DNA of 64,000 bases from Escherichia coli (GTDB taxonomy: Bacteria; Pseudomonadota; Gammaproteobacteria; Enterobacterales; Enterobacteriaceae), in NCBI RefSeq assembly GCF_050920415.1, contig NZ_CP169309.1. One strand, 5' to 3'. Within the stretch, counting starts at the first letter, position 1, and each line of letters starts with the position of its first letter. Shown here one piece after another: positions 12,313 to 55,987 of this stretch. The notes beneath the pieces are model-generated. The model worked only from the letters and a program-made list of their open reading frames with translations. It made no database searches and was not told where the DNA came from. The translations under genes and the position numbers were made by a program.

Positions 12313-12335
12313 TAATATATTTCTCGACTTATTAG

Positions 12336-25842: not shown

Positions 25843-25844
25843 CG

Positions 25845-25915
25845 CGTCTTATCACACCCGGAAATCTGTACTAAAAATCATGCCGGATAAGGCGTTTACG
25901 CCGCATCCGGCATAT
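25845..25915. repeat. REP palindromic units downstream of ybbJ
   Basis: ATGCCGGATAAGGCGTTTACGCCGCATCCGGCAT matches the REP consensus. Confidence 0.55.
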
Positions 25916-25933
25916 AGCCGAGTAGTGGCAAAA

Positions 25934-27678: not shown

Positions 27679-27731
27679 TTTTAACAGCAATTTCTTATTC
27701 GCAATTTTCCGTACATTATTTAAGGTTAACA

Positions 27732-28154: not shown

Positions 28155-28357
28155 AGGAGCAAAGGAAAATCCCCCTGACGCATATTATGATTATCGGTGC
28201 GTTTATTTTTGCCTTCTTACAAGTGGTGTTATTAGCCTCCCTGGTTCACGCTGTGAATGTTAACAACGAAATCCAGGAAGGCTTATTTCAGTCGGGGCGC
28301 ATTATGGTAGAAAGTTTGCAGCATATTCTGTCTGTGCAACCGGTGATTAACGGGTAA
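28151..28357 (+). CDS. small single-pass membrane protein
   Basis: 68-aa ORF with one hydrophobic helix IMIIGAFIFAFLQVVLLASLV; translationally coupled to the lipoprotein gene. Confidence 0.3.
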   Translation: MKEQRKIPLTHIMIIGAFIFAFLQVVLLASLVHAVNVNNEIQEGLFQSGRIMVESLQHILSVQPVING

Positions 28358-28439
28358 GAGCACCGCTTCCATTTATAGAGCAATAGTCACCAGCGTAATT
28401 TTCTGGCACAGTTCAGGGAACTGAAATTTTGGCTAAGGA

Positions 28440-29669: not shown

Positions 29670-30077
29670 TCACCCCGCTCGATGATGACAGCAGCCGGAG
29701 AGATTTTCGATAATTGGGCAGTCGGCGCTGTCATCACCGGGGCAGGCATTCGCCAGCGCCAGTAGCTGGTCGCGCATGGATTGCAGCTCCTCAATGTGCC
29801 GTTCGATCTCCGCTACCTTCTCCAGCGTACGACGTTTGACGTCGGCACTGTGACGCTGCGGATCGTTAAACAGATTCACCAGTTCGCCGCTCTCTTCCAG
29901 GTTAAAGCCCACCTGGCGCGCCTGGCGCAGTAAGGTCAGTTCGTTGAGATGCTGCTGCGTGTAGGTTCGATAACCATTTTCGCTGCGCATCGGCGGCGTC
30001 ACTAGCCCCTTTTCTTCATAGAAGCGAATGGCTTTGCTGGTCAGGCCGGTAATTTTTGCTACATCGCTAATGTTCAT
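29670..30077 (-). CDS. cueR: MerR-family copper-responsive transcriptional regulator
   Basis: 135-aa [29 protein letters not shown]... with C-terminal metal-binding Cys pair (CPGDDSADC), matching recalled CueR. Confidence 0.92.
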
Positions 30078-31249
30078 CGTTCGCGCAACGCCTCCTGTGC
30101 TTTGTTAAAGGGTTTCAACAGATAATCCAGCACGCTTTTTTTGCCGGTGCGGATATCGACCGTCGCCACCATGCCGGGAAATATCGGAAACTGCTGTTTA
30201 TGTTTATTTTCCAGATGGTTGCTGAAAGTGCGAATGTACACCCGATAGTAATAAACATCGCGTCGCACTTCATCCTGCACGGTGTCTGGTGATATCACCG
30301 CCACTTCCCCCGGCAGGCCGCCGTAGATGGAGTAGTCGTAAGCGGTTATTTTCACCAGCGATTTTTGCCCCGGATGGATAAACGCCACATCGCGGGGGGA
30401 GATTTTTGCCTCGATCAACAGTTGCTCATCCAGCGGCACGATAGTCATAAGTTTACCACCGGGGGCGATGACGCCGCCAACCGTGGTGACGTCAATGTCC
30501 TGAACAATGCCTCGCACCGGCGCAGTAAAGTTGAGCCGGGTGAGAGAATCTTCCCGCCCGCGGATCACCGAACGCTGGGTTTCCACTTCCGCATTGGCTT
30601 TCGCTAACTCTTCCCGCGCCTGTACGTAGTATTGCGTACGCACGTCGCTAAGTTTGTTTTCCAGTTCATTGGCCTGGCGTTGCAGGCGCAGCACTTCAAC
30701 GCTGCTCGCCGCCCCCTGTTTCACCAGCGGCTGGGTCATCGCCAGTTCGCGGTTGACCAGGCTGATCCCCTGCGTCAGCCCGGTGGTGGCTTTGTTCAAC
30801 CCGTCGCGGCGAGTGTTATATAACGCCGTTTCCGACTCGATAAGTTCGGGGAATTTATTCAGTTCGTCAGGAAAGACCAGCGGTTTATTGCTCACTTCTG
30901 CCCGCAGCCGCGCCGAGGTTGCCAGCGCCGCATACAGCCGCGACATCGCTTCCTGGACGTCGGATTCCGTTTTGGTGCGGTTAAGCTGCGCCAGCGGCTG
31001 CCCCTGTTCGACAATATCGCCAACCTTCACGTCGAGATGATACAAAATCCCGCCTTCCAGCGACTGCACCACCTGTTCGCGTCCAGAAGGTTCTACCGTG
31101 CCGCTGCCGGTGGTGACTTCATCAAGCTGGAAGTACCACGCCCAGCCGAGAAAACAGAGCAGCATCACAGCGGTAACGCGCACCGCCAGCGCCGAACGTG
31201 GCAGGCGGGGTTCAGTCAGGCCACGGTTGTATTGCAGTTGTCCGTTCAT
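30074..31249 (-). CDS. type I secretion periplasmic adaptor (HlyD-family membrane fusion protein)
   Basis: 391-aa ORF with N-terminal TM segment, coiled-coil and beta-barrel domains; overlaps the ABC gene by 4 bp. Confidence 0.85.
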
Positions 31250-33408
31250 GCGGCAGACCCCTTATTCTTCTCCTGCAACACCACGCGTCGCGTCGTGGGT
31301 TCGCCCTGTTCACGCAAAATGGTCTCTTTCGCGCCGTCCATCACAATGCGCCCCTGATCCATCACAATTATCCTGTCCACCAGTTGCAGCATTGCCGTGC
31401 GGTGAGTAGCGATGACCAGCGTGCGATGCCCAATCCACTGTTTTAGTTGTTCAATTAAATACGCTTCCGCCATTTCATCCAGCGAGGCACTGGGTTCATC
31501 GAGCAGGACGATATTGGGTTGAGAGATGAGCAGCCGCGCCAGCAGCAGCGTTTGCCGCTGGCCGCCAGAAAGACCAAATCCCCCTTCCTGAATCATGTAG
31601 TTAAGGCCGTTTTTCTGCTTCTGCACAAACGGCAGCGCCCCGCTGAGGGTCAACGCGCGTTCGATATCTTCATCGCTGGCTTCTGGCATCCCCATGGTGA
31701 GATTTTCCCGCAGCGAACCGAAGAACAGTCGCCCAGTCTGGCTCAGCAGCCCCATGTCGCGGCGCAGATCCGCCGGATCAAGTTGCCCGATGCTGATGTT
31801 ATCCAGCAGCACCTGCCCCTGCTGGGCGATACGCATTCCGGCGAGCATTTGCAGTAGCGTTGATTTACCCGCGCCGTTGCGCCCGAGAATGGCGATTTTC
31901 TCTCCGGCCTGAATGTTGAGTTTGCCGATCGCCACATCGGCAATCTTCTCTTCTTCGTCGTAATAAAACACCGCGTTGCTGAACTGATAATTTCCGTGCA
32001 GCACTGCTTTATGCACCAGTTTGCCGTGTTCCGGCTGATCCACCGGGCGCTTCATCAGTTCATCAAGGCCATTACGCGCCACTTTCGCCTGCTGCCAGCG
32101 CGAAAGCACGCCGGATATCTGCGACAGCGGCGCAATGGTGCGCGAAGCCAGGATCGTCGTCCCGACCAGCGCGCCGGTGGTCATGTCGCCGCTCATCACC
32201 ATAAAGCAGCCCACCAACAGCACCACCACATAGACGATGGATTGCACTTCCTGCGTCCAGGTGAGCAGCAGCCCGGTGAGAAAACGTTGCTTCATACTGA
32301 TGGACGAGGCCACGTCGTTGGTGTGATTCCACTGATTCTGGAAACGCTGTTCAGCACGCAGCAGTTTAATGTCTTCAATCGACTGCACGGCCTCGACAAG
32401 CGTAGCGTTGCGCACTGCCGATTCGCGCATCCCTTCGTTCGCCAGCCGCGCCAGCGGGCGTTGCACCAGCAGGCCGGGGATCACCAGCAACGGCAGCGCC
32501 AGCAAAACAACCAGCACCAGCCAGCCGCCGATCATCCACAGAATAAAAACAAACAGCAGGAAGAACGGCAGATCCGCCACCGCGCCAATGGTGGTGGAGG
32601 TGATCAGCTCCCGCACCGATTCCAGTTCGCGGATCTGTGAGATAAACGATCCGGTGGATTTCGATCGCACGTTATTTTTCAGCCGTAATGCGTGACCAAA
32701 CACGCGATCCGAAATACGCAGATCCGCCCGTTTGCCGATCACATCGGAAAGGTGTGTGCGCACCATGCGCATACAGAACTCAAACAGGATCGCCATCATC
32801 ACCCCGGCGAACAGCACCCATAGCGTCGGGTAGGACTGCGCCGGAACAACGCGGTCGTAAACCTGCATCGAGAAAATCATCGCCGCCAGCGCCAGCACGT
32901 TCGCCACCAGCGAGGCCAGCATAATATCGCCATAGCGCCGCCAGTCTTTTAGCGAAAGATTCCAGAACCAGTTAGCCTGATACGGGCGAATGTAGTCATC
33001 CACCCGCGCATCGGGGATGGCGCTGAGCGGGCGCAGTAGCGCCAGTTCAACGATTTTGTCTTCTATATCCGTGACGTTTAGCGTAGTTTCCAGCCCTTCG
33101 TCACCGCTGAACTGAACGCTGATATTATCGTGATTGTCGCGGCGGGTGATCACGCCAATCTGTTGATTATCAAACACCGCGATCAACGGCAGACGCCAGG
33201 GGTTAAGCGAATCAGTGGAAAACTCCACCAGCCGTAGCCCCATCCCCAACTGCCGCGCCATGTCGGTGAGCAACTCTTCCCGCTTGCTGTCGCGCTCCCA
33301 GTTGACGGTCGCGCGCACGTTCTCCTGGGAAAAATCGAGGCGGTAATAACGCGCCACGGCGATCATCGCCTCCAGCCAGGCTTCCACGGACTGGGCATTT
33401 TTTTTCAT
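31246..33408 (-). CDS. type I secretion ABC transporter (N-terminal C39-like domain, permease, ATPase)
   Basis: 720-aa ORF with Walker A GRNGAGKST, signature LSGGQRQ and Walker B LLDEPSASLD; about 130-aa N-terminal extension typical of HlyB-type exporters. Confidence 0.88.
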   Translation of the reverse strand: MKKNAQSVEAWLEAMIAVARYYRLDFSQENVRATVNWERDSKREELLTDMARQLGMGLRLVEFSTDSLNPWRLPLIAVFDNQQIGVITRRDNHDNISVQFSGDEGLETTLNVTDIEDKIVELALLRPLSAIPDARVDDYIRPYQANWFWNLSLKDWRRYGDIMLASLVANVLALAAMIFSMQVYDRVVPAQSYPTLWVLFAGVMMAILFEFCMRMVRTHLSDVIGKRADLRISDRVFGHALRLKNNVRSKSTGSFISQIRELESVRELITSTTIGAVADLPFFLLFVFILWMIGGWLVLVVLLALPLLVIPGLLVQRPLARLANEGMRESAVRNATLVEAVQSIEDIKLLRAEQRFQNQWNHTNDVASSISMKQRFLTGLLLTWTQEVQSIVYVVVLLVGCFMVMSGDMTTGALVGTTILASRTIAPLSQISGVLSRWQQAKVARNGLDELMKRPVDQPEHGKLVHKAVLHGNYQFSNAVFYYDEEEKIADVAIGKLNIQAGEKIAILGRNGAGKSTLLQMLAGMRIAQQGQVLLDNISIGQLDPADLRRDMGLLSQTGRLFFGSLRENLTMGMPEASDEDIERALTLSGALPFVQKQKNGLNYMIQEGGFGLSGGQRQTLLLARLLISQPNIVLLDEPSASLDEMAEAYLIEQLKQWIGHRTLVIATHRTAMLQLVDRIIVMDQGRIVMDGAKETILREQGEPTTRRVVLQEKNKGSAA

Positions 33409-33411
33409 TCT

Positions 33412-36400
33412 CTACACCACCATCAACTGATGATTCGCCAGTAAGGTGGCGAGGTCGGTATGCACGCCCGTCAGCGTGACCACGTTAGTTGTCGCAAAGC
33501 CGCCGCCCGTGCCGTCACGGTCGATCTGCACGATGGTGTCGCTGCCGCTCTGGGTGACTTTGACAAAATCACCGATGTTCCCGACCTGGGCATCCAGCGT
33601 TGCCACACCGTTGACATAGCTAGCTTTGCCGTTTCCGGTGTAGCCGCTGCCCTGTAACAGTTCACGAATATCAATGCGATCGGTGTCGGCGGTGCCTTCC
33701 CAGGTGCCTACCGTAAAGCCATTCACCACGTCCGAACCGTTGCCCCCGGTGGCGTCACTGGCGTTAAGCAGTTTATAGAGCAAGGTATCGTGGCCGCCGT
33801 TGCCGATGTTGAGCGTGTCGTTACCGCCGCGCCCTTCCAGTTGGTTATCGCCGCTGCTGCCGGTCAGAGTGTCATTAAAATTCGAGCCGGAAATCCCTTC
33901 GATATTGGTAAATGTCGAGGTATTAAAACCGGTGGCCTGTGCAGTGGTGACGCTTAAGTTAGCGGTGACGCCCACCGTTGAGAGACGGAAATCGACCACG
34001 TCCATGCCGCCGTTCGCCAGCCAGGTTCCTGTGCCGGAGCTGTACACCCAGCCGCCGGAACCGTCGTAGGTGTCGGTGCCTGCGGTGGCGAAGAAGGTGT
34101 CGTTATAGCCAGTGCCGACAAACTTGCCGTTGTTGCTCGCCGTACCCGCTTCAGCACTGAGATCGTAAGCGTGAGTAGCATCGGTGGCCTGTAAGCCGCC
34201 CCATGTGGTGTTTACCGTCTGGTCGATATTGCTGGCGGTAGTACCGGTGGATTTGATCAGCACCGCGTTGTAGGTTTCTCCCGCGTTAAGTCCGTAGAAG
34301 TTGACCAGCGCCGAGGTGTCGTTAACGCCCATTCCCGACTGCGGGTTGATGATTTGTGTCGCCACCAGCACACCCGCCGAGTTGTACAGCTTCACGGTAT
34401 TGCCGTAATAGACGTTAATACCGTTAGGATCGGTGATACGCAGGTGCAGCGAGGTGCCGTAGCTCACCGTGTTGGTGTTGCGGATCAGGAACACGCTGCC
34501 CGACTGTTTGGTCACCAGCACATCCACCGCGCCGTCCCAGTCGTAGTCCATTGCCGCCACGCCGCTGGTAGTGCCGCTCTGGCTGCCACCGAGTGCCGAT
34601 TGTGTCCAGTTACTGGCGTTACTGACGTTGGTATAAAGATACGACTGCCCGGTCTGGGCGATACGGGCGATGTCCATTAACCCGTCATGATCCCAGTCGA
34701 CGGCCAGGCTGAATTGACTGGCGTAGGTGGTTGCCGTCGCGCCGACCGCCACCGGGCTACCCAGCACGCCGTTGGTGTTGAATAACAGCGAGCCGTAGTT
34801 AGCTCTTCCCTGGCTGGCGGGCAGGAAGAGATCCATATCGCCGTCACCATCGAAATCGGCCCATGTCATGGAAACGGATGCCGAGTTTCCCCCCGAGCCA
34901 GGACTACTGAGGAAAGTATTGACGGTGTTTTGTCCCCAGACGAAGGTGCCATTGCCCTGACTTATCAACGATGAGAGGGTGAAGTTGTTGTTCAGGTTGA
35001 AAGTGTGCTGAACCAGATCAATTCTGCCGTCATTATTGAGATCGACACCGGAACCTTCGTTGAGTGACAGATAACCGGTTACCGCCCCACCGACCGTAGC
35101 ACTCCCCCCGTTATTAGCGGTGGTGGAGTTGCCTGTCAGGGTGCCGGCGTTGTTCCACAGGAAGGTATTAGAGTCCGGTCCACCGGCGTCGCCAATCCAG
35201 AAATCAAGATAACCGTCGCCCTCTTTATCGAACGCCACAATCGAGCCATACCACGTCAGGGTGCCAACGTTCACCTGGATGGCGCTGGAAAACGTACCAT
35301 CGCCGTTATTAGTAAAGCCGTTGATATACCCCGTGCCGTAGTCATCACGGGTAATAAACAGATCGCCCGTACCGTTACGGTTGTAATCGGCGATGGAGCT
35401 GGTGGCATAGTTGTTGCCACTTTGCACCAGCGTCAGGGCGGTTTTCGACCAGGTGAGCGGATCGGTGGATTGCATAATTTGCTGGTTGGCCAGCACTGTC
35501 CACATCCCGTGTGTGTCGAGGCCGTAGGTCAGCCCCCATGCGGTGGATTTGCTGGTGGTGGTCCAGGTCGGTGTGTAATCTATCGCCGCGTTAACCGTCA
35601 CCGTGCCAGTGCTGACGTTAGCGGTGTTACCGTTACCCGCCGAGCTTTTTACCTGCGCGGTGACGTTATAGGCGGTCGCAGACGCCGCCAGCGCGTCGGT
35701 ATCCGGCAGTTGCACATACCAGGTGTTGTGCGCCGGATCGACCACCACCGCACCGCCCGGTTGCGAGGTGTAAGTTTTGCCGTTGATCACCACTTCAACA
35801 TACTGCCCACTGGCAAGTGCCGCCGTGATTACGCCGCTGATAATCGGCGTGGTATCGCGTGTGGTTTGATTGGTGATTTGCGCAAGCGTGGTCGGAATAG
35901 AGGTATCGACAGTCAGGATAAAATCGCTGGAGGAGGTGATATTCCCTGCCAGATCCACCACTCGTGCGCTGTAGGTATAGGCACCGCTGACCAGACCACT
36001 GTCGCTGTAAGTCCAGTTCAGCGCGCCGACCATCGTTACCGCACCTAACAGCAGACCGTTACGGTAGAGGTAAACGACTTCACCGCTGGCAAGCGGCGCA
36101 GAGAGCACGCCGTTTAACAGCGGCGTAGTGTCGTCGGTGGCCTGCGAACTGCTTAATGTCCCCTGCCGCTGCCCGACATCATCGGTATACGACACAATGG
36201 TCGGCGTGGCGGTGGGGTTAATCGTATCGACCACCACCGTTTTCGATACCACCGGGCCTGTATTTCCCGCCAGATCCAGCACCCGTACCTGATAAACGTA
36301 GCTGCCGTCGGTCAGCGTGCGGCTGTCAGTGTAAGTCCACTGCGTACCGTTGGTGGTGAGCGTGGTCCAGGTCGCGCCGCCATCGAGGCTAATCTGCGCC

Positions 36401-48400: not shown

Positions 48401-51400
48401 CTGACGCTCCAGCTACCGCCCGCCTGAACGGTGCCGATGTAAGCCACACCATTAAGCGTGACGGTTACCGTTTGCCCCGCTTCGGCGGTGCTGGTGCCGC
48501 TGATGGTTAACGGATTTCCCGCCTCAGCGGCGTTAAGAATATCGTCGGTGGCGATGGTGTTAATGGCAAGCGTCGGGGCCGTGGCATCGACGCTATAGGC
48601 GTGGGTTGCCGAAGCCGTGTTGCCGTTAATATTGCTGACACTGGCCTGTACCGTGGCGTCGCCGTCACGTAACGCGCTGAGATCGGCGGTGGGTAGCGTA
48701 GTTGTCCAGCTACCATCGCCCGCTACGGTAGCGATATAGGTTTTGCCGCCAAAGGTGACGGTGACGGTTTGCCCCGCTTCCACGCCGGAAGTGCTGCCGG
48801 AAAGGGTTAAATCTGCCCCTTTTTCGGCGGCGTTAATCACATCATCGCCGGAAACGGTGTTAATGGAGATCGCCACCGCCGCCAGATCGACGGTGACCGG
48901 ATGGGTGATGGTGGAGGTTGTTCCGGCAGTGTTAGTGCCGCTTACCGTGATATCCACCGTCCCCGCAGGCCAGTTGCCCACATCTGCCGCCGGAACGCCA
49001 ACGCTCCATGTGCCATCGGCTAATACTGTCGCGCCATAGGTGACGTTATTGATCACCACCGTCAGCGCCGCGCCCGCCGCCAGCCCGCTGCTGCTACCGG
49101 TTATCACCAGTGCCTGACCGTGCTCGATGCTGTTAACCACATCATCGCCCGCCACGGTATCAACGCGCAGACCTGGCAGATTGGCATCTATCACAATATC
49201 GCGCGCACCGCTGCCAGTATTACCCACGCCGTTGGTTACCGAGGCGTTAACTGTCAGGTCGCCATTACCGATGGCCTGAATATCCGCCGCCGGAACGTCC
49301 ACGCTCCAGCTAAAATTGCCCTGCACAGTAGCGGTGTAGGTTTTCCCGCCAAGCGTCACGGTAACCGTATCGCCCGCCGCCGCGCCCGTCACCTGGCCGC
49401 TGATGGTCTGCGCCACGCCCGATTCCGCCGCGTTAATAATATCGTCGGTCGCCACCGGATTAATGGTGACACCCGGCAGCGCGGTATTCACCTCCACGTT
49501 ATGGCTGGCGGAATTGCTGTTGCCCGCGCTGTCGGTGACGTTCGCCGTCACCGTGTAACTGGCTTCGCCCAGCGCACCGACGGCAGAGGCTGGCACCGTG
49601 GTGCTCCAGTTGCCTGCGGCGTCCGTCGTGGCGGAGTAATTTTGCCCGTTAAGCGTCACCGTAATTGTGGTGCCTGTTGGCTGATTACTGGTGCCGGAAA
49701 TTTGCAGATCCGCGCCTTTTTCCGTGGCATTAATCACGTCATCGCTGGCAATGGGGTTGATGCCAATGGTCGGCGCGGTAAGGTTAACGGTGACCGTGTG
49801 CGTCTCGTTGTCGCTGTTGCCAGCCACATCGGTAACGGTCGCCGTCACGGTTTGCGGGCCGCTGCCCAGCGCAGAGACATCCGCAGCCGGAACGCCGACG
49901 CTCCAGTTGCCGGAGGCATCCAGGGTGGTGGTGTAGGTTTTATTGTTTAGCGTGACGCTGACGATATCGCCCGCCTCCCCGCCAGTGCTGGAACCGGAAA
50001 TCACCAGCGCCTGCCCGTGTTCGGCGGCGTTAATAATATCATCGCCCGCAATGGTGTTAATGGTCAGTACCGGAACGGTGAGATCCACCGCCAGATTATG
50101 CGTGGTGCTCGCCGGGTTGCCCGCTTTGTCATTAACCGTGGCGGTCAGGGTGTGGCTGCCATCCGTCAATGCCTCAAGGTCTGCCGCCGGAATAGTAATA
50201 CTCCAGCTGCCGTCGGCCTGTACCGTTGCCTGATAGGTCTGCACGGTCGGGCTATTGAGCGTTACCGTAACAATCTGCCCCGCTTCAGCGGTGGTGGTGC
50301 CGCTCACCGTCACACCCGCATCGGCTTCGCTGGCGTTGACGATATTGTCGCTGGCGACGGTATTGATAATGATGGTTGGCGCGCTGCTATCGACGCTGTA
50401 GTTATGCACCGCCGAGGCGCTATTGCCATTGATATTGCTGACGCTGGCCTGCGCGGAGGCGCTGCCCTCAGGTAATGCTGCCAGATCGGCGGCAGGAACG
50501 GTGGCAGTCCAGCTACCATCGCTCGCCACGCTGGCGGTGTAATTTTTCCCGCCAAAGGTGACGGTGACGGTTTGACCGGGTTCTACATTCGTGGTGGTGC
50601 CGGAAAGGGTTAAATCAGCGCCTTTTTCTGCGGCGTTAATCACGTCGTCCGTAGCGATGGTGTTGATGGTGATCGCCGCTGGCGTGAGATCGACCGTTAC
50701 CGGATGCGTAATGCTTATCGGATTTCCGGCGCTACTTTCCCCGGACACAGTAACCGTCACTGTTCCCGCAGGCCAGGCGCTAACCTGCGCCGCCGTGACG
50801 CCCACGCTCCAGCCACCATCGGCCAGCACCGCAGTGGTGTATTCCACATTGTTAATCATAACGGTAAGCGGCGTGCCTTCTGCCAGCCCCGAGCTGCTGC
50901 CGCTGACCACCAGCGCCTGCCCGTGTTCGATGATATTGACCACATCATCACCCGCCACCGTATCGACCCGCAGACCGGGCAGATTGGCGTCGATGGTGAT
51001 ATCCCGCGTGCCGCTGCCGGTGTTGCCGTTTTGATTGGTGACCGAGGCGCTCACCGTTAAATCACCATTACCCAGCGCCTGAATATCCGCCGCCGGAACG
51101 CTCACGCTCCAGCTTAAACCGGCCTGCACGGTGGCGGTGTAAGTATTACCGCCAAGCGTAACGGTTACCGCGTCGCCAACGGCGGCTCCGGTAACCTGCC
51201 CGCTGATGGTTTGCGCAACGCCCGCTTCGGCGGCGTTAATAATATCGTCGGTTGCCACCGGGTTAATGGTCACGCCGGGCAACGCGCTGTCGACCAGCAT
51301 GTTATGGCTGGCGGTGGCGCTGTTACCGATACCGCTGGTCACTGCTGCTGTCACCGTATAGTTGGCCTGGCCCAAGGCGGTTACCGCCGATGCCGGAACG

Positions 51401-54186
51401 GTGACGCTCCAGTTGCCGGAAGAGTCGGTCGTGGTGGTGTAATTTTGCCCGTTCAGCGTCACTGTGATGGCGGTATTGGCAGGCTGATCGCTGGTGCCGG
51501 TAATCTGGAGATCGGCTCCTTTTTCGCTGGCGTTGATCACATCATCGCCCGCGATAGTGTTAATGCCAATCACCGGCGCGGCGGTATCAACCGTGACGGT
51601 CAATGACTGGCTGCCGCTGTTTCCAGCGCGGTCAGTCACTGAAACGTTGATCGGATAACTGCCGTCCACCAGTCCGCTGACAACGGAGGCCGGAACGCCC
51701 AGACTCCAGTTGCCGGAAGCATCCACCACCGTGGTGTAATCCACATTATTCAGCGTCACGGTGACAATATCACCCGCCTGCGCGCCGGTGACCGTGCCGC
51801 TGATAATTTGCGCCTGAGTGTGTTCCGGCGTGTTAATGACGTTATCGGTTGCCACCGGATTAATGGTCACCACGGGCGGCGTGGCATCGACCAGCGCCAC
51901 CCGTGAGACGCTGGTCGGATTACCCGCGACATCGTTCACGCTGGCGGTCACCGTGGCGTTGCCGTCAGCCAGTACGCCAACGTTGGCGGCGGGAACGGTC
52001 ACGCTCCAGGTGCCATCTGACTGCACGACGCCCTGATAGGTCTGCCCATTAAGCGTGACGGTCACCGTCTGCCCCGACTGGGCGTCGGTGATGCCAGTGA
52101 TTTGCAGATCCTGACCACTTTCGGCGGCGTTGATGATGTTATCAGCCGTCAGCGAGTCAATGCTTAAGGCCGGGGCCTGGCTGTCGACGGTAATGGTGCG
52201 GGAGGTGTTGCCGGTATTGCCGCTGAGATCCGTCACTGAAGCGGTAATCGCCACCGCGCCGTCAGGCAGATTTCCCATCGCGGCGGCAGGTACCGTCAGA
52301 CTCCAGGAGCCATCGGCCTGTACGGTAGTGGTAAAACTCTGTCCAGCCAGGGTTACTGTGACAGTTTGTCCTGTCTCGGCCTGTTGAGTGCTACCGGTAA
52401 GGGTCAGTGGCGCACCTTTTTCTGCGCCACTGATAATGTCATCGCCGGAGACGGTGTTAATGGTGATCAACGGAGAAACACCGACCAGCGTGATTGCTCG
52501 AGACGCCGCGCCGGTATTTCCTGCAGCATCTGTCACGGTGACGAAAATCGTATTGGCTCCGCGATCCAGCGTGCGGGTTACCGCCGGGTCCAGTGCCACA
52601 TTCCAGCTGCCATCTGCCAGCACGATGCCCGTCAGGACATGAGTGCCCAATTTCACCGTTACCGTATCGCCTGGAGAAGCACCGCTGACTTGTCCGGAGA
52701 TGATCTGCGCGACGGCCTGCTCGGCATTATTAAGAATATCGTCGCCCGCCACGGTGTTAACGCTGACCACGGGTGCTGAGGTGTCTACCGTGAAATTCGC
52801 GCTGTTGCTGGTGGTGTTCCCTGCCCGATCGCTGACACTGGCATTGACAGCGTAGTTCCCCTCCGCCAGTGCCTGGACCTCCGTGGCAGGCAGCGTCACT
52901 TGCCAGGTTCCGTCGCTACCGACGGTTGCTGAATGGCTTTTCCCGTTAACGTTCAGTGTTACGGTTTGCCCGGCTTCTGCGTTCGAAGTGCCGCTCACTA
53001 CCAGCGCGGCGTTATGTTCTGAGGCGCTGACAATGTTGTCCTGAGCGATGGTGTTGATAGCAAGTGTTGGCGGCTGGGTATCGACCGTTAGCAGCTGCGC
53101 TCCGGTGACCGTATTGCCCGTGGCATCTTTCCCACTGACCAGCACCGCCTGATTCCCTTCGCCTAACGCTTGCGCGTCGGCGGTCGGCACCTGCACGCTC
53201 CACGCGCCGTTAGCGCCTACGCTGGTGGTGTAGGTTTTACCATTTAGCGTGACGGTGAGTTCGGTTCCCTGCGCCAGGTTGCTCGTCGTGCCAGAAAGCG
53301 TAAACCCGGCGGCCTGTTCGCTGGCGTTAATGATGTTATCGCCTGCGGTGGTGGCAACCTGTACGACAGCCTGACTATTGTCGATGGTTAACGTTATCGA
53401 CCCAGCGTTGGTAATGGTGCTGCCGACGATTTGCACCACTGACCAGGTATGTTCGCCCGCGCTTTGTGTGGGTAAATCGACGCTCCAGCGCCCGTTGCTG
53501 TCTACCTGAGTGCTGGCGATAGTATTGCCGTTACTGTCTTTGATCTGAATGGTCGCCCCCGCCTGACCGCTGCCGCTAAAGGTTGGCGTGGTGTCATCGG
53601 TGATATCGTTGGCGGAAAGAATACCGCGTTGATCGCCCTGATTATCGGTTACCAAAAACGATGGCGTGGCATTGCCGGGTTCGGCTGGCGGTGGGTTGTT
53701 AACCACTTCAGTTTTTGAGTCATCATCACCACCGCTTGCCAGTAAAGCGCCAAGCGCGCCACCACCTACCGCGGCACCCGCTAACCATCCCCACGGGAAG
53801 GCACTGGTCTGAGCGACGGTATCAAGATACGGCGCAATGCTTTCAATTGCGGTAGTCTGAGCGGTCAGCTCCACGGGCGCTAATCCACCCGCCGCGGTAT
53901 CGGCAAAGGTGACATGAGTCAGCTGTTGACCATCGGCAAACACCAGTTGAGATTGTTCGCTGGTATTTGCCGCTTGCAGGAAATAACCGTTGCAGCGGAT
54001 CACCGTGCCGTCTTGCATATAGATCAACAGGTCATTTCCGTCACGGACATAACGCACAACGGCAGATGCCTGAGCATGAACCTGCACTACAGAGGGCTCA
54101 TAAATGACAACCGTAACGTCGCCTGGATTAATCAGCGTTTGTTTGACGGATGTTTTTCGCGAAATAACATCAATAATCAGGCTCAT
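33412..54186 (-). CDS. giant T1SS-secreted repeat adhesin (6,924 aa; BapA/SiiE/LapA-like) with Ig-like repeat array, FG-GAP/VCBS-like region, RTX-like repeats and C-terminal secretion signal
   Basis: Single uninterrupted 20.8-kb ORF; dozens of about 100-aa Ig-like repeats (…TINTVAGDDIINAAEHGQALVISGS…GNWSVGVPAADV…); Asp-rich motifs DFDGDGDMDLF, DWDHDGLMDI and DYDWDGAVDV; glycine/aspartate nonapeptides GSSGDNQLEGRGGNDTLNIGNGGHDTL near the C-terminus; flanked by T1SS OMP, ABC and MFP genes. Confidence 0.9.
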   Translation of the reverse strand: MSLIIDVISRKTSVKQTLINPGDVTVVIYEPSVVQVHAQASAVVRYVRDGNDLLIYMQDGTVIRCNGYFLQAANTSEQSQLVFADGQQLTHVTFADTAAGGLAPVELTAQTTAIESIAPYLDTVAQTSAFPWGWLAGAAVGGGALGALLASGGDDDSKTEVVNNPPPAEPGNATPSFLVTDNQGDQRGILSANDITDDTTPTFSGSGQAGATIQIKDSNGNTIASTQVDSNGRWSVDLPTQSAGEHTWSVVQIVGSTITNAGSITLTIDNSQAVVQVATTAGDNIINASEQAAGFTLSGTTSNLAQGTELTVTLNGKTYTTSVGANGAWSVQVPTADAQALGEGNQAVLVSGKDATGNTVTGAQLLTVDTQPPTLAINTIAQDNIVSASEHNAALVVSGTSNAEAGQTVTLNVNGKSHSATVGSDGTWQVTLPATEVQALAEGNYAVNASVSDRAGNTTSNSANFTVDTSAPVVSVNTVAGDDILNNAEQAVAQIISGQVSGASPGDTVTVKLGTHVLTGIVLADGSWNVALDPAVTRTLDRGANTIFVTVTDAAGNTGAASRAITLVGVSPLITINTVSGDDIISGAEKGAPLTLTGSTQQAETGQTVTVTLAGQSFTTTVQADGSWSLTVPAAAMGNLPDGAVAITASVTDLSGNTGNTSRTITVDSQAPALSIDSLTADNIINAAESGQDLQITGITDAQSGQTVTVTLNGQTYQGVVQSDGTWSVTVPAANVGVLADGNATVTASVNDVAGNPTSVSRVALVDATPPVVTINPVATDNVINTPEHTQAQIISGTVTGAQAGDIVTVTLNNVDYTTVVDASGNWSLGVPASVVSGLVDGSYPINVSVTDRAGNSGSQSLTVTVDTAAPVIGINTIAGDDVINASEKGADLQITGTSDQPANTAITVTLNGQNYTTTTDSSGNWSVTVPASAVTALGQANYTVTAAVTSGIGNSATASHNMLVDSALPGVTINPVATDDIINAAEAGVAQTISGQVTGAAVGDAVTVTLGGNTYTATVQAGLSWSVSVPAADIQALGNGDLTVSASVTNQNGNTGSGTRDITIDANLPGLRVDTVAGDDVVNIIEHGQALVVSGSSSGLAEGTPLTVMINNVEYTTAVLADGGWSVGVTAAQVSAWPAGTVTVTVSGESSAGNPISITHPVTVDLTPAAITINTIATDDVINAAEKGADLTLSGTTTNVEPGQTVTVTFGGKNYTASVASDGSWTATVPAADLAALPEGSASAQASVSNINGNSASAVHNYSVDSSAPTIIINTVASDNIVNASEADAGVTVSGTTTAEAGQIVTVTLNSPTVQTYQATVQADGSWSITIPAADLEALTDGSHTLTATVNDKAGNPASTTHNLAVDLTVPVLTINTIAGDDIINAAEHGQALVISGSSTGGEAGDIVSVTLNNKTYTTTLDASGNWSVGVPAADVSALGSGPQTVTATVTDVAGNSDNETHTVTVNLTAPTIGINPIASDDVINATEKGADLQISGTSNQPTGTTITVTLNGQNYSATTDAAGNWSTTVPASAVGALGEASYTVTANVTDSAGNSNSASHNVEVNTALPGVTINPVATDDIINAAESGVAQTISGQVTGAAAGDTVTVTLGGKTYTATVQGNFSWSVDVPAADIQAIGNGDLTVNASVTNGVGNTGSGARDIVIDANLPGLRVDTVAGDDVVNSIEHGQALVITGSSSGLAAGAALTVVINNVTYGATVLADGTWSVGVPAADVGNWPAGTVDITVSGTNTAGTTSTITHPVTVDLAAVAISINTVSGDDVINAAEKGADLTLSGSTSGVEAGQTVTVTFGGKTYIATVAGDGSWTTTLPTADLSALRDGDATVQASVSNINGNTASATHAYSVDATAPTLAINTIATDDILNAAEAGNPLTISGTSTAEAGQTVTVTLNGVAYIGTVQAGGSWSVSVPTTDLSNLTASPYTVSASVSDKAGNPATATHGLAVDLTVPVLTINTVSGDDIINAAEHGQALVISGSSTGGEAGDVITITLNSKTYTTTLDASGNWSVGVPAADVTALGSGPQTITAAITDAAGNSDDASRTVTVNLTAPTIGINTIASDDVINATEKGADLQITGTSNQPAGTTITVTLNGQNYTATTDSSGNWSATVPVSAVSALGEANYTVTANVTDTAGNSNSASHNVLVNSALPAVTINAVATDDIINAAESGNAQTISGQVTGAAQGDTVTVTLGGNTYTATVQANLSWSVSVPAADIQALGNGDLTVNVSVTNDVGNTGSGSRDITIDANLPGLRVDTVAGDDVINSIEHNQALVITGSSTGLTAGTALTVVINNVTYAATVLADGTWNLGVPAADVSNWPAGTVDITVSGTNSAGTTSTITHPVTVDLAAVAITINTLSGDDVINAVEKGETLVVSGSTSGVEAGQTVTVTFGGKNYTTTVETNGSWTVNVPPADLAALPDGAGNVQASVSNIYGNSAQADRAYSVDATAPLVTINTIASDDILNVSEAGAGITISGTTTAQAGQTLTVTLNNNTYQTTVQADGTWSVNVPATDLSGLTASSYTVTATVSDKAGNPASADHALAVDVTAPDLTINTVAGDDIINAIEHGQALVVSGTSTGAAAGDVVTVTLNGKNYTTTLDASGNWSVGIPAADVTALATGSQTITASLSDRAGNSDSTTHDVTVDLSGPTLTINTVSGDDIINNAEKTQDLIISGVSSGLAAGTTVTVMLNGLAYSATTDGSGNWSVTVPASAVGALGEAVYSISASATDSAGNSGSTTHTVNVESLLPGVIINTVAGDDIINAAEIAVNQTLSGQVTGTAVAGNTVIVTIGGNQYIATVQPDLSWSVSVPAADLQALGNGELTISASVTNSANNTGTATHDIVIDANLPGLRVDTVAGDDVINSIEHTQALVVTGSSSGLAAGAALTVVINNVTYGATVLADGTWSVGVPAADVADWPAGTVNIAVSGTNTAGTTTSITHPVTVNLAAVAITINTLSTDDVINAAEKGTDLQLSGTTSGVEAGQTITVIFGGKSYTTTVAADNTWGLTIPAADLATLPDGAANVQASVSNVAGNNAQATHVYSVDATAPSVTINTIASNDILNAAEAGSALTISGTSTAEAGQTVTVTLNGINYSGNVQADGSWSVSVPTGDLANLTASSYTVNASVSDKAGNPASATHNLTVDLAAPVVTINTVAGDDVINATEHAQAQIISGSATGATTGNTVSVTIGSTTYTTVLDANGNWSIGVPASVISALAQGDVTITATVTDSAGNSGTASHTVSVALGAPILAINTIAVDDIINATEKGADLSISGTSNQPAGTQVTVTLNGQNYTTTADASGNWSVTVPASRVSALGEASYTVTASATDTDGNSGSASHNVQVNTALPGVTINVVATDDIINAAEAGADQTINGLVTGAAAGDTVTVTLGGATYTATVQADFSWSVDVPAPALQALGNGELTISASVTNSVGNTGNGTREITIDANLPGLRIDTVTGDDVVNIIEHDQALVITGSSSGLAAGSNVTLTISGQTYVAAVLADGTWSVGVPAVDVSAWPAGAVTITASGSTTAGNPVSVTHPVTVDLSAVAVSINAITADDVINAAEKGAALTLSGSTSGVEAGQTVTVTFGGKTYTASVAANGSWSTTVPAADMAALRDGDASAQASVSNVNGNSATTTHAYSVDATAPTVTINTIAGDDILNAAEAGAALTITGSSTAEAGQTVTVTLNGANYTGTVQTDGSWSISVPPADLSALTASIYTVSAAVSDKAGNPTSVNHNLTVDTSVPVVTINTVAGDDVINATEHAQAQIISGSATGAATGNTVTVTIGTNTFTTVLDASGNWSVGVPASVVSALANGTVTINASVTDAAGNSGSATHQVTVNTGLPTITFNAISSDNVLNADEKGQPLTISGSSTGLATGAQVTVTLNGHNYSATTDAAGNWTLTVPVSDLAALGQANYTVSASATSAAGNTASSQANLLVDSGLPGVTINTVADDDIINAAEAGADQTISGVVTRAAAGDTVTVTLGGNTYTATVQGNLSWSVTVPAADLQALGNGDLTINASVTNANGNTGSGTRDITIDANLPGLRVDTVAGDDIVNSIEHGQALVITGGSSGLNAGTVLTVTINSVAYSATVQADGSWSVGIPAANVSAWPAGPLTVEVAGQSSAGNPVSVSHPFTVDLTAVAISINTVASDDVINAAEKGTNLTLSGSTSGIESGQTVTVTFGGKNYTASVAANGSWSVNVPAADLATLPDGAANVQASVSSASGNSASATHAYSVDASAPTLTINTIASDDILNATEAGSPLTISGTSTAETGQTVTVTLNGATYTGNVQADGSWSVSVPTSALGALTASNYTVSATVNDKAGNPGSASHNLAVDTTAPVLTINTVAGDDIINDAEHAQALVISGTSTGGEAGDVVSVVLNGKTYTTTLDASGNWSVGVPTADVTALGSGAQSITASVSDRAGNSDDASRTVTVNLTAPAISINTIAGDDVINATEKGSDLALSGTSDQPAGTAITVTLNGQNYSATTDASGNWSVTVPASAVSALGEATYSVTASVTNAQGNSSTASHNVQVNTALPGVTINPVATDDIINASEAGSAQTISGQVTGAAAGSTVTVTLGGKTYTATVQPDLSWNVSVPAADWQALGNGELTVNASVTNAVGNTGSSTRDITIDASLPGLRVDTVAGDDVVNIIEHAQAQVITGSSSGFTAGTALTVVINNQTYAATVLANGTWSVGIPAADVSNWPAGTLNITVSGANSAGTQTSITHPLSVDLTTVAISINAITPDDVINAAEKGAALTLSGSTSGVEAGQTVTITFGGKTYTTTVAANGSWSTTVPAADMAALRDGDASAQVRVTNVNGNSATATHEYSIDSAAPTVTINTIASDNIINASEAAAGVTVSGTSTAETGQTLTVTLNGTNYQTTVQADGSWSLTLPASDLTALANNGYTLTATVSDLAGNPGSASKGVTVDTTAPVISFNTVAGDDVINNVEHSQAQIISGTATGAVAGDRLVVTIAGLQYVTSTDASGNWSVGVPASVVSGLADGTVTISATITDSAGNSSTQTHNVQVNTAVVSLSVSTISGDNIINAAEAGSALTLSGTGTNFATGTVVTVLLNGKGYSATIQNNGSWSVNVSAADVAALADGTSYTVSASAQDSAGNSATASRSVAVDLTAPVININTVSTDDRLNAAEQQQPLTLNGSTSAEVGQTVTVTFGGKTYTATVAANGTWALNVPAADLAALGQGAQTITASVNDRAGNPGQTTHALTVDTVAPTVTIATVAGDDIINNAEQLAGQTISGTTTAEVGQTVTVTFNGQTWTATVGSGGSWSVFIPAQQFAGLSDGSYTISATVSDQAGNPGSASRGVTLNGDVPTVTINTFAGDDVVNAAEHGASLVISGTTTAPVGQTLTLTLNGKTYTTTVQTGGSWSYTLGSADVTALADGNAYVINASVSNAIGNIGSSNHTITVDLSAPAMGINIDSLQADTGLSASDFITSVSPVVVNGSLTAALASNETAQISIDGGITWSTLTVTGTTWRYNDSRTLTDGNYLYQVRVIDAAGNVGATDSQNVVIDTTAPDPAVKTIAISAITTDTGLITNDFVTSDTTLAVSGTLGAALSAGEFAQISIDGGTTWQNLAVNGLTWTYLDGRTLTDGNYNYQVRVIDTAGNIGATASQIVTVDTTAPLASKTIVIAGISDDTGLSSSDFVTRDTTLTVRGTLGAALAADERAQISLDGGVTWATLTVIGTSWSYADGRTLTDGTWNYTVRVVDLAGNVGQTATQNVVVDTIIPEAAKSITITGISDDTGASSSDFITSDTTLTVRGVLGAALGANEFAQISTDNGSTWVNVTVAADGLNWTYVDGRTLTNGTTTWQVRVVDLAGNVGATGSQSAQIDTVNPAQVLTIASISTDTGSSATDFITSDTTLTLTGSLGAGLASGEVAQISLDGGATWTTLTTNGTQWTYTDSRTLTDGSYVYQVRVLDLAGNTGPVVSKTVVVDTINPTATPTIVSYTDDVGQRQGTLSSSQATDDTTPLLNGVLSAPLASGEVVYLYRNGLLLGAVTMVGALNWTYSDSGLVSGAYTYSARVVDLAGNITSSSDFILTVDTSIPTTLAQITNQTTRDTTPIISGVITAALASGQYVEVVINGKTYTSQPGGAVVVDPAHNTWYVQLPDTDALAASATAYNVTAQVKSSAGNGNTANVSTGTVTVNAAIDYTPTWTTTSKSTAWGLTYGLDTHGMWTVLANQQIMQSTDPLTWSKTALTLVQSGNNYATSSIADYNRNGTGDLFITRDDYGTGYINGFTNNGDGTFSSAIQVNVGTLTWYGSIVAFDKEGDGYLDFWIGDAGGPDSNTFLWNNAGTLTGNSTTANNGGSATVGGAVTGYLSLNEGSGVDLNNDGRIDLVQHTFNLNNNFTLSSLISQGNGTFVWGQNTVNTFLSSPGSGGNSASVSMTWADFDGDGDMDLFLPASQGRANYGSLLFNTNGVLGSPVAVGATATTYASQFSLAVDWDHDGLMDIARIAQTGQSYLYTNVSNASNWTQSALGGSQSGTTSGVAAMDYDWDGAVDVLVTKQSGSVFLIRNTNTVSYGTSLHLRITDPNGINVYYGNTVKLYNSAGVLVATQIINPQSGMGVNDTSALVNFYGLNAGETYNAVLIKSTGTTASNIDQTVNTTWGGLQATDATHAYDLSAEAGTASNNGKFVGTGYNDTFFATAGTDTYDGSGGWVYSSGTGTWLANGGMDVVDFRLSTVGVTANLSVTTAQATGFNTSTFTNIEGISGSNFNDTLTGSSGDNQLEGRGGNDTLNIGNGGHDTLLYKLLNASDATGGNGSDVVNGFTVGTWEGTADTDRIDIRELLQGSGYTGNGKASYVNGVATLDAQVGNIGDFVKVTQSGSDTIVQIDRDGTGGGFATTNVVTLTGVHTDLATLLANHQLMVV
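38000..52000. repeat. tandem array of about 1.8-kb super-repeats inside the adhesin gene (about 7-8 copies; approximate bounds)
   Basis: Antisense ORF-track artefacts with near-identical sequence recur at 1,794-1,797-bp spacing (39764, 41558, 43355, 46949, 48743); the motif LPGLRVDTVAGDDV recurs 7 times about 600 aa apart in the protein. Confidence 0.7.
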
Positions 54187-54294
54187 AATGGCATTCCTGA
54201 TAAATGGCGCACATCCTTAGCGAGTCCATTTATCTAAATAAGACAAAGGTAATCACTCAACAACGATGCATACCTGATATTAATAATGGCAGGA

Positions 54295-55650
54295 TTATTT
54301 CAAGTCGGGTAAGTCGTTGTATAAGCCCTGCTTAATTCCCGCTAATGGAATAAGGTTATTCACCGCAGCGGCATAATTCACAGCGGCAACCCAGCCATCA
54401 TAATTGACATTTATTTCAGCTGATTGCGCCTGAAAGACATCTTGCTCAACGGTTAAGAGATCGTTCAGGCTGCGTTTACCCAATTTATATTCATTTTGGT
54501 ACACATCTCGCGTTCTGTGCGCACTTTCAGATTGCGCTAACCCAGCCTCTTCACGACCCCGTGCCCCAGTCCAGTTGGCATACGCCACCGACGCCCGTTG
54601 CATAACATCTAATTTCGCCTGCTCAACCTGCGACGCGGATATTTTTTGTTGCCCTTCGGCTTGCTGAACCTGAGCCGAAACCGCGCCGCCCTGATACAAC
54701 GGCGCGTTGACGTTCAACTGTAACTGGTCGTCCCAGTACGAGCGGTCGCTGGTCTGGTAGCGTGTTTTGCCGCCCTGAATACTGAGCGTCGGCCAGTATT
54801 GCGCTTTCGTTTTTTCCACACCGTACTGTGCTGACTGGCGTAAGTTTTCTGCCGCCAGCACCAGTGGGATGGACTGGTAATCAATATTTTTCAGCGATAC
54901 CGGCTGCTCGGCTAATTCAGCAGGTGGCGCGGCTATCGCCTCCGGCTGTACGCCAGTAAGCACCGCCAGTTGCGCTTTGGCGCTCGCCATCTGCGCTTGA
55001 TATTTCTCCAGGGTTGAGCGCATTCCGGCAATACGCGTCTGGGCCTGTAATTCATCCGACGATGAGTTCAGGCCAGCGTTAGCGCGCAGCGCCGCCATGT
55101 TGTAGACGTTTTCCAGCGAGTGGATATTGCGTTGAGCCGCATCGCACAACGCCTGATAACGACTGACCTCCATATAGGCAGTCGCCGTTTTTTCGGCAAC
55201 ATCGGTTAAAGTTGCCATCAATTTAAAGCGGTAGCTGTCACGAGCGGCGGTTTGCAGTTTGATATCGTTATCTGTTTTACCGAAGTCATACACCAGCTGT
55301 GTCAGGGTTATGCCATACGAAACGTTGTTATCAAGCCTGCCGCTGGAGTCCGTTTGCCGTGACGGCCCCGCGTTGCTGGTTAATCCAACGTGTGGATACC
55401 AGGCACTTTTGGCTTCATCAATTTGCGCTTCGCCAATACCTATCTGCGCCGCCTGTTGAGTGACGTCGGGATTTCGCGCAAAGGCGCGTAATATACTTTC
55501 CTGTAAAGATAATCGGGCAACTGGCGTTACCGCTGGGGCGTTCGCCCATTGTGGCAGCGGTGCAGCAATTGTAGCTTCTCCCATCACCATAAAACTTATT
55601 AAAAAAATAAGTCCATTATTTTTACGGTTTTTAAACTGGAATCGCGCCAT
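54295..55650 (-). CDS. TolC-family outer membrane channel of the T1SS
   Basis: 451-aa ORF with signal peptide and two-repeat OEP architecture rich in Q/A coiled-coil segments; first gene of the apparent T1SS operon. Confidence 0.82.
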   Translation of the reverse strand: MARFQFKNRKNNGLIFLISFMVMGEATIAAPLPQWANAPAVTPVARLSLQESILRAFARNPDVTQQAAQIGIGEAQIDEAKSAWYPHVGLTSNAGPSRQTDSSGRLDNNVSYGITLTQLVYDFGKTDNDIKLQTAARDSYRFKLMATLTDVAEKTATAYMEVSRYQALCDAAQRNIHSLENVYNMAALRANAGLNSSSDELQAQTRIAGMRSTLEKYQAQMASAKAQLAVLTGVQPEAIAAPPAELAEQPVSLKNIDYQSIPLVLAAENLRQSAQYGVEKTKAQYWPTLSIQGGKTRYQTSDRSYWDDQLQLNVNAPLYQGGAVSAQVQQAEGQQKISASQVEQAKLDVMQRASVAYANWTGARGREEAGLAQSESAHRTRDVYQNEYKLGKRSLNDLLTVEQDVFQAQSAEINVNYDGWVAAVNYAAAVNNLIPLAGIKQGLYNDLPDLK

Positions 55651-55952
55651 AGATAAGTCACTTCCTTCCAGGTCATTATTTTAACTAGTTTTTACAACCA
55701 GTCTCATTTTATTAAGAAGGGTAATAACTTGTGCACCTCTTTTGTCGAACATTGAGATTGGAAAAGAAATGCAGTTAAAAAGCTTATACGTTATTTATTT
55801 AGAATACACTACGACTTTTAGATTACCATCATACGCATTAAGAATAATCCACAGCAATAAGTGATTAGCATCACAGATTTATCGCGTATATATCATTTTT
55901 TTGTGACTTATTTATTAAAGGAATAAGAAAGGAAATTTGAATTAAAGACAAA

Positions 55953-55978
55953 GGCGCAGTACAGAAAGTACTGCGCCC
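55953..55978 (-). terminator. putative intrinsic terminator downstream of ybaT
   Basis: Perfect 10-bp stem GGCGCAGTAC/GTACTGCGCC with AGAAA loop just past the ybaT stop; T-rich tract follows on the minus strand. Confidence 0.5.
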
Positions 55979-55987
55979 AGAGAGGTT

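Follow-up and report, generated by a model that had tools for sequence, protein, structure and literature searches.

In Escherichia coli K-12 the genes cueR and ybaT are neighbours, as the earlier note on this DNA had stated, and lie 124 bp apart. In the 64,000-nucleotide stretch of E. coli DNA analysed here (contig NZ_CP169309.1 of assembly GCF_050920415.1; hereafter the window), the same two genes are separated by an island of four genes, one of which encodes a protein of 6,924 residues. The locus therefore raises two questions: what the island makes, and whether it was gained in this strain or lost in K-12. We read it as an intact allele of a known E. coli island, O-island 28 (OI-28), with a dedicated type I secretion system (T1SS) as well as a fibrillar repeats-in-toxin (RTX) adhesin of 6,924 residues, for which a mechanism is proposed below. 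Our rough probability for this reading is 0.85.

The island, its export system and the adhesin SiiEA

An open reading frame (ORF) scan of the window found four co-oriented ORFs on the minus strand between ybaT (55988-57280) and the backbone gene cueR (29670-30077, minus strand, from the scan and the annotation), which confirmed all four genes and coordinates of the earlier note. From ybaT towards cueR, they encode a TolC-family type I secretion outer-membrane channel of 451 aa with a signal-peptide-like N-terminus (54295-55650), the giant protein SiiEA in a single intact ORF (33412-54186), an LssB-type type I secretion ABC permease/ATPase of 720 aa (31246-33408), and a HlyD-family periplasmic adaptor of 391 aa with an N-terminal membrane anchor (30074-31249). 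A spacer of 108 nt follows the TolC-like gene and precedes siiEA. The gap between siiEA and the ABC gene is 3 nt, and both the ABC/hlyD and the hlyD/cueR boundaries are ATGA overlaps. As the start codon of cueR and the stop codon of hlyD overlap, cueR stands at the tail of the island gene string. The island is a four-gene operon-like unit, in which a dedicated T1SS is joined to a single cargo. Given the base composition of siiEA, the chance probability of an open frame of 6,924 codons is about 1e-99. The earlier note had named an interrupted frame or exporter pseudogenes as fatal to its claim; the siiEA frame was intact and the exporter genes were not pseudogenes. The whole window was 100% identical to E. 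coli MFDS1022581 (NZ_CP169399.1), where RefSeq names the four products TolC family outer membrane protein, "siiEA: BapA-related adhesin SiiEA", type I secretion system permease/ATPase, and HlyD family adaptor.

Families were assigned by the bit-score cut-offs of the NCBI curated models (NCBIfam/TIGR). The TolC-like protein matched TIGR01844 with 411 bits (cut-off 225), the ABC protein matched the LssB-type model TIGR03375 with 836 bits (cut-off 693), and the HlyD-like protein matched TIGR01843 with 328 bits (cut-off 209) up to its last residue. SiiEA matched NF047714 (adhesin_SiiEA, a 229-residue N-terminal model) over model positions 1-229 of 229, with 509.7 bits against a cut-off of 425. The proposal of a self-contained T1SS with a giant adhesin as cargo was thus borne out by curated family matches for all four proteins. 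The ABC, membrane fusion protein (MFP) and TolC-like outer membrane protein (OMP) genes of this secretion class are all present, and export itself is predicted.

The ABC protein aligned over residues 10-700 (E = 4e-81) to HlyB in the solved structure of the HlyB/HlyD complex and carried the ATPase motifs Walker A (residue 509), LSGG (613), and Walker B (633). The C39-like domain (CLD) that the earlier note had proposed was found at residues 1 to ~140 (32989-33408, minus strand), where the HlyB N-terminus aligned; the Pfam Peptidase_C39 match was weak (E = 0.029). Only Cys212 and Cys401 occur in the protein, and residues 1-140 are free of cysteine. The missing cysteine together with the HlyB alignment indicates that the domain is predicted to be catalytically dead, which by sequence places the protein among the CLD-type exporters (HlyB/LssB/LapB group). 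An anti-phage defence reading of the locus was rejected, as the PADLOC scan gave generic ABC-ATPase similarities only.

SiiEA begins with a BapA-type prefix domain (residues 1-125; 53812-54186, minus strand), for which we propose the role of a retention plug. PF22783 (E = 1e-18) and NF033677 (E = 3e-18) both matched the BapA_N domain at residues 5-131, and the comparison with BapA suggested in the earlier note held for this N-terminal part. AlphaFold2, run with 31 relatives, predicted a beta-rich fold for residues 1-122, with a predicted local distance difference test score (pLDDT) above 90, and disorder for residues 125-185. In an exhaustive search the N-terminal module had 133 relatives, and the full-length matches begin at about residue 1 of very large proteins. 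A word-indexed protein search with the N-terminal 180 residues returned E. coli and Shigella fragments only. Compared by sequence with the PDB, the domain showed chance-level matches only, and the comparison with solved structures, retention modules included, gave no significant match.

The alignment and the model place a hydrophobic Gly/Ala-rich segment, WGWLAGAAVGGGALGALLASGG, at residues 130-153 (53728-53799, minus strand), followed by an acidic/Pro-rich linker. Its character was kept across 56 aligned relatives and it was predicted to be disordered. We propose this segment as a good candidate for the part of the adhesin that sits in the channel or envelope. A transmembrane helix was also considered for this stretch and set aside, since AlphaFold2 assigned no structure to it; it is kept as a putative linker.

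Residues 177-6186 (35629-53658, minus strand), about 87% of SiiEA, consist of 60 tandem Ca2+-binding Ig-like extenders of ~100 aa, identified by the domain scan as Ca_tandemer and arranged in a six-domain super-repeat of ~1.8 kb. Protein identity between extenders was ~65% at lags of 6, 12, and 18 domains and ~44% at other spacings. This result indicates that a six-domain block of ~1.8 kb was amplified. Among PDB entries, the extender profile matched 4P99 (the MpAFP/MpIBP RII tetra-tandemer) at E = 2e-76 and other RTX/Lap adhesins, including 5IRB and 6XI3, at E = 1e-53 to 1e-18. The match to 2YN3/2YN5, which we take to be SiiE BIg50-52, was at E = 4e-13. The RII extender of MpIBP spans 4-5 nm, and with the same span per extender the stalk of SiiEA would be ~0.25-0.3 µm long.

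Beyond the stalk, the model of the last 738 residues (pLDDT 83, predicted TM-score 0.88) showed a propeller with an adjoining beta-sandwich. This CRTAC1-like module (residues ~6216-6666; 34189-35541, minus strand) contained three FG-GAP_3 repeats by Pfam and is proposed to be the distal ligand-binding region. Its best PDB match was CRTAC1 (9ETN, E = 2e-13), followed by integrin alpha propellers. The protein ends in an RTX nonapeptide beta-roll and an uncleaved C-terminal type I secretion signal (residues ~6667-6924; 33415-34188, minus strand). The C-terminal VCA0849-type secretion domain matched TIGR03661 with 31.7 bits (cut-off 17.6), and the beta-roll resembled the CyaA RTX block, and serralysin and CyaA in structure comparison. 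Fibrillar RTX adhesins are built from an N-terminal retention module, Ig-like extenders, a ligand-binding region, and a beta-roll plus T1SS signal (10.1101/2025.09.30.679566). SiiEA shows this canonical plan in its sequence: the extender array and, at the C-terminus, the beta-roll with T1SS signal are both there, and the anchor role of the N-terminal module is proposed.

The island is O-island 28 of enterohaemorrhagic E. coli (EHEC; Sakai ECs0540-0544), and as such it was already known and named. The annotation of O157:H7 ATCC 35150 has the same site (ybaT-cueR), the same four genes, and the same order. DNA identity to OI-28 was ~94-97% overall, with 93.9% for the TolC-like region; the ABC and HlyD genes were ~97% identical in other island-bearing genomes, O157 not being among those listed. 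These flanks, order, and identity settle the link to OI-28 that the earlier note had raised as a possibility. OI-28 has been catalogued since the O157 genomes of 2001, with its cargo annotated as "RTX family exoprotein" in EDL933 and Sakai. The earlier note was not aware of any functional characterisation, and this has to be revised. Deletion of OI-28 or of any single gene of it lowers adherence to Caco-2 cells and mouse colonisation, an effect that was seen again in further O157 and O145 strains (PMC12758282, Gut Microbes, Dec 2025). The same study reports a box to which RstA binds, upstream of the TolC-like gene in O157:H7 OI-28, and an enhancement of the expression of the island by Ca2+ (PMC12758282). 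For the name SiiEA, the literature search found one relevant paper, with homology-based annotation only; the name comes from RefSeq/NCBIfam, where a curated family exists for the cargo.

The RstA box seen in O157:H7 has its counterpart in the window. Between ybaT and the TolC-like gene lies an AT-rich, island-specific, putatively regulatory spacer (55651-55959, minus strand; 32% G+C). It contains an RstA-box-like motif, TAATTCAAATTTCC (55931-55944, minus strand), which agrees in 13 of 14 bases with the box that was mapped in OI-28 of O157:H7. The motif was matched once in the window and in 0 of 100 shuffles. Promoter-like matches upstream of the TolC-like gene and within the hlyD 3' end were no commoner than in shuffled sequence, so that we take none of them for a promoter; on the gene strand, the hlyD 3' end had no such match.

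From this architecture and from what is known of type I-secreted adhesins, we infer an order of export, a means of retention, and a role for the propeller. Transcription would start upstream of the TolC-like gene and would likely respond to RstA and Ca2+, as reported for O157. The LssB-type ABC protein would engage the unfolded cargo through its dead C39-like domain, and, together with the HlyD adaptor and the TolC-like channel encoded in the island itself, would thread it outward with the C-terminus first. Outside the cell, Ca2+ would fold the beta-roll, the propeller, and the 60 extenders into a long, rigid stalk. The BapA-type N-terminal domain, able to fold without Ca2+, may be too bulky to leave and would serve as the tether, while the Gly/Ala-rich segment would stay within the conduit. 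The propeller at the far tip would then bind a ligand.

The reported phenotypes concern the gut, and a cargo acting mainly in biofilms, between cells, or on abiotic surfaces, like BapA, with the gut phenotypes secondary, is the alternative that we regard as possible though doubtful. It is consistent with the BapA prefix type of the N-terminal domain, with the environmental adhesins MpIBP and Lap as the nearest solved relatives of the extenders, and with close homologues of the whole system in Enterobacterales that live with plants or insects or in water, such as Rahnella, Rosenbergiella, Erwinia, Pantoea, and Lelliottia. Against it stands the loss of early Caco-2 adherence and mouse colonisation in OI-28 mutants (PMC12758282), although the two roles are not mutually exclusive.

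How far those phenotypes apply to the protein described here depends on the state of siiEA, which was sampled in eight of the 958 island-bearing genomes. The gene was intact in this strain and in strains 746 and MS14384 (20,775 bp) and NCTC10444 (20,727 bp). In O157:H7 ATCC 35150 it was split into ORFs of 1,461 and 5,188 aa and is a RefSeq pseudogene (locus L003, 11527-31686). O145 RM9154 had an internal stop and O55:H7 DEC5E a frameshift, and in both the gene is likewise annotated as a pseudogene; ETEC1701 had a gene in three pieces. In the species-representative set, E. coli SCPM-O-B-8794 kept an internally deleted remnant only. The adhesin gene of E. whittamii Sa2BVA5 was only ~6.6 kb long (locus L004, 3362-9994), which could be a truly short allele or a short-read collapse of the repeats. 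The split halves have been treated as two proteins, RtxA28 and RtxB28 (PMC12758282); they are two pieces of one gene, siiEA.

Several points weigh against our reading. The RTX block is short and gave only one Pfam match (HemolysinCabind, E = 2e-4). The phenotypes come from O157 and O145, and the sampled genomes of these serotypes carry a split or pseudogene siiEA, so that the transfer of the phenotypes to the intact protein is indirect. The intact alleles are known here from genes and predicted structures; since the sampled genomes of the studied serotypes carry a broken siiEA, the intact 6,924-aa protein is probably still functionally uncharacterised. The cargo should be taken for a single giant fibrillar adhesin and not for a pair of RTX toxins, and secretion, retention, and ligand binding should be studied in intact alleles such as this one rather than in the O157 allele, which is split.

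The TolC-like gene was found in 958 of 5,426 complete E. coli genomes, always chromosomal and in single copy, and the island is taken to be present in these. The allele of this strain is rare: its TolC-like region (54187-55987) was ~94% identical to that of 949 of the 957 other island-bearing genomes and 95-99% identical to the remaining 8. The island had a G+C content of 58.7% and siiEA of 59.9% (70% at third codon positions), against 48.5% in the rest of the window, so that the GC-richness which the earlier note had judged by eye is now computed. This enrichment was not shared by the TolC-like gene (51.6%) and its upstream spacer. Together with the rare allele, the low G+C content of this part hints that the island is of mosaic origin. 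The order giant gene-ABC-hlyD is common in Enterobacterales (~70% ABC identity and ~50% identity of the C-terminal module) and was found in Enterobacter, Citrobacter, Lelliottia, Pluralibacter, Cedecea, Rahnella, Rosenbergiella, and others. Pseudocitrobacter faecalis DSM 27453 was the closest relative outside Escherichia, with 95% identity of the ABC protein and 85% DNA identity over 13.3 kb (locus L006, 1-13328), and is a possible pointer to the donor lineage.

The K-12 junction

The earlier note took the island to be inserted precisely into a K-12-like site. The alignment of the junction speaks against this. The DNA without K-12 counterpart spans window positions 30173-55959 (25,787 bp). On the cueR side, K-12 homology resumes at 30172, not behind the hlyD stop codon but 97 nt short of it. 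On the ybaT side, it ends at 55960, inside the 3' arm of the ybaT terminator-like hairpin, which marks the left edge of the island (55952-55978, minus strand; 11 bp stem and T-rich tail). This hairpin is complete here (55978-55952) and cut within its 3' arm in K-12.

The last ~97 nt of the hlyD-like gene (30074-30172, minus strand) are what remains as the ybaT-cueR spacer of K-12. The K-12 spacer aligned base for base with the hlyD 3' ends of this strain, O157, E. whittamii, and Pseudocitrobacter faecalis, and differed by a 1-bp deletion in an A7 run, which shifts the frame. The peptide encoded by the remnant is a conserved end of the HlyD family, as the TIGR01843 match reaches the last residue. 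The Pseudocitrobacter homology runs exactly to the stop codon of hlyD, with no cueR behind it. In K-12 the overlap of the cueR ATG with the hlyD-derived stop persists behind the fossil hlyD tail (locus L002, 8990-8996). The hlyD remnant and the truncated ybaT terminator indicate that the K-12 locus descends by deletion from one that bore the island. A 221-bp probe over the K-12 junction matched end to end in 4,458 of 5,426 genomes (~82%), and E. whittamii Sa2BVA5 carries its island at the same ybaT-cueR site. As judged from these alignments, the K-12-type site probably derives from one deletion in an island-bearing locus and is now the majority allele.

A recent insertion by horizontal transfer into an empty K-12-like site is accordingly improbable and already largely refuted. 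It would agree with the G+C difference between island and window, with the presence of the island in only 958 of the 5,426 genomes, and with the 85% DNA identity to Pseudocitrobacter faecalis over 13.3 kb. It does not account for a K-12 spacer made of genuine conserved HlyD coding sequence, which is found also in Pseudocitrobacter where cueR does not follow, nor for the frameshift and partial hairpin in K-12, the one identical junction in 4,458 genomes, and the E. whittamii island at the same site. Integrase, tRNA, and direct repeats were also not annotated at the island ends. Of the horizontal acquisition put forward in the earlier note, a foreign origin remains likely and the recent insertion into an empty site does not: the G+C signature is foreign, but the island is old at this site, which suggests an older horizontal origin. 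On balance we favour, with some reserve, a joint view in which the island is ancestral at ybaT-cueR in Escherichia, the K-12-type site arose by a single deletion with one end within the ybaT terminator and the other 97 nt short of the hlyD stop codon, and intact SiiEA may have a ligand and a role other than those reported in O157 and O145.

Two further indications of the island's history were examined and dropped. A divergence gradient as the sign of an ancient haplotype was not evident, since the flanking genes were 94.4-97.1% identical to K-12 with no clear gradient. Introgression from E. whittamii was rejected, as its island showed only 87-91% DNA identity. Separately, E. coli SCPM-O-B-8794 (locus L078, 8383-12238) carries an independently decayed island, whose deletion is distinct from that of K-12; what is left comprises part of the TolC-like gene, the N-terminus of the adhesin, an ABC fragment, most of hlyD, and cueR.

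In comparative genomics, the absence of OI-28 from K-12 should be treated as a loss rather than a gain. The deletion also raises the question of changed cueR transcription in K-12, where a fossil hlyD tail and a damaged terminator lie upstream of the gene.

Adhesin release, the toxin annotation, the reading frame and the rest of the window

Retention of SiiEA may be compared with the LapG/LapD-type switch, in which a periplasmic protease would cut a di-alanine site (TAAG, residues ~97-100) and release the adhesin. A TAAGG sequence lies about as far from the N-terminus as such a site should, and the closest E. coli relative has it too. It was tried as a LapG-site family feature (residues ~97-101) and rejected, as the motif was not conserved in the other 55 aligned relatives. 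The N-terminal 1,200 residues had no LapA-type retention-module model at E<=1e-5, and no lapG- or lapD-like gene was annotated in the window. We consider such a switch quite unlikely, a little more so than a recent insertion, and keep the bulky N-terminal plug as the proposed means of retention.

The EDL933/Sakai annotation would make the cargo a secreted RTX toxin or exoprotein. The weak RTX nonapeptide block, the type I secretion signal, and the historical name agree with it. The bulk of the protein, however, is Ig-like extender, and the Pfam and NCBIfam scans of the terminal regions found no pore-forming hydrophobic or other toxin-type domain. The island has four genes only and no acyltransferase, and the architecture fits the fibrillar RTX adhesins (10.1101/2025.09.30.679566). 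The probability of a toxin is therefore very small, and SiiEA is better described as an adhesin.

That the 6,924-codon ORF is an assembly artefact, by mis-assembly of repeats or with a truly broken gene behind it, is just as improbable as the toxin: the gene is highly repetitive, siiEA is split or a pseudogene in several other complete genomes, and the short-read E. whittamii assembly shows ~6.6 kb only, but errors break ORFs rather than keep them, the chance probability of the frame is vanishingly low, the independent complete genomes of 746, MS14384, and NCTC10444 have intact genes of nearly equal or equal length, and the low identity between adjacent repeats and between super-repeat copies limits collapse.

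Several other features were observed in the window. A second stretch without K-12 counterpart (25841-29664) lies between ybbJ and cueR, so that cueR has non-K-12 DNA on both sides. It contains a gene for a 120-aa hypothetical protein (25934-26296, minus strand), one for a 338-aa YadA-type trimeric autotransporter (26662-27678), a 140-aa lipoprotein-like ORF (27732-28154), a small ORF, and a 409-aa ORF (28440-29669) with no family match. O157:H7 and ETEC1701 have the same ybbJ-cueR segment without the 409-aa ORF.

The region between mnmH and ybbP (6273-17057) is variable: beside an IS2 transposase and an ISAs1 remnant it has an orphan tssI/vgrG (13117-15522, minus strand), downstream of which follows a series of hypothetical genes. 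The copA-ybaP spacer (60982-61409) is 428 bp long with no annotated gene, and in K-12 it is 795 bp with ybaQ; from this shorter, gene-free spacer in the annotation, ybaQ appears to be missing. Two ordinary backbone small RNAs scored above the Rfam gathering score, naRNA4 (22734-22811, minus strand; 83.6 bits) and sroB (62203-62286, minus strand; 82.1 bits), the latter at the place where K-12 annotates chiX.

Comparison with known systems

The nearest system is OI-28 of O157:H7, which shares the site, the genes, their order, and all but one base of the RstA box. It differs in the adhesin gene, which is split there and a single ORF here.

The distal module resembles vertebrate cartilage acidic protein 1 (CRTAC1) and integrin alpha in its Ca2+-binding FG-GAP propeller and beta-sandwich. 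With 9ETN the TM-score was 0.59 (normalised to the target) at only 14% sequence identity; the likeness lies in the fold and gives no ground for a common ligand.

Pseudomonas fluorescens LapA, with LapEBC and LapG/LapD, uses the same LssB-type ABC class with a dead C39-like domain and is also a giant surface-held repeat adhesin with an RTX/VCA0849-type signal. SiiEA differs from it in having neither a LapA-type retention-module match nor a conserved di-alanine, and the window annotation has neither lapG nor lapD.

SiiE of Salmonella pathogenicity island 4 (SPI-4), with SiiABCDF, is likewise a giant Ig-repeat adhesin with type I export and a role in epithelial adhesion. Its repeats were matched far more weakly (4e-13, if the BIg identity that we assume is right) than those of the MpIBP type (2e-76), and the gene order differs. 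MotAB-like siiA/siiB genes were found neither among the four genes of the island nor in the window annotation. The island is not a SPI-4 SiiE system, the comparison drawn in the earlier note was loose on this point, and the name siiEA overstates the relationship.

Salmonella BapA shares with SiiEA the BapA prefix domain (PF22783, NF033677), Ig-like repeats, and a dedicated TolC-like/ABC/HlyD set, although NCBIfam gives SiiEA an exception model of its own, distinct from BapA. BapA is presumably about half as long as SiiEA, and its gene order, as we take it, is bapA-bapB(OMP)-bapC-bapD, compared with OMP-adhesin-ABC-MFP here.

MpIBP of Marinomonas primoryensis and the Lap adhesins of Marinobacter and Aeromonas have homologous extenders (4P99, 5IRB, 6XI3) and the same overall plan. 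They carry ice-, sugar-, or peptide-binding modules where SiiEA has a CRTAC1-like FG-GAP propeller, and the N-terminal domain of SiiEA is of the BapA-prefix type, without a confident match to solved structures. Taken together, the repeats, the anchor, and the accessory-gene content of the island point to the BapA/MpIBP/Lap group.

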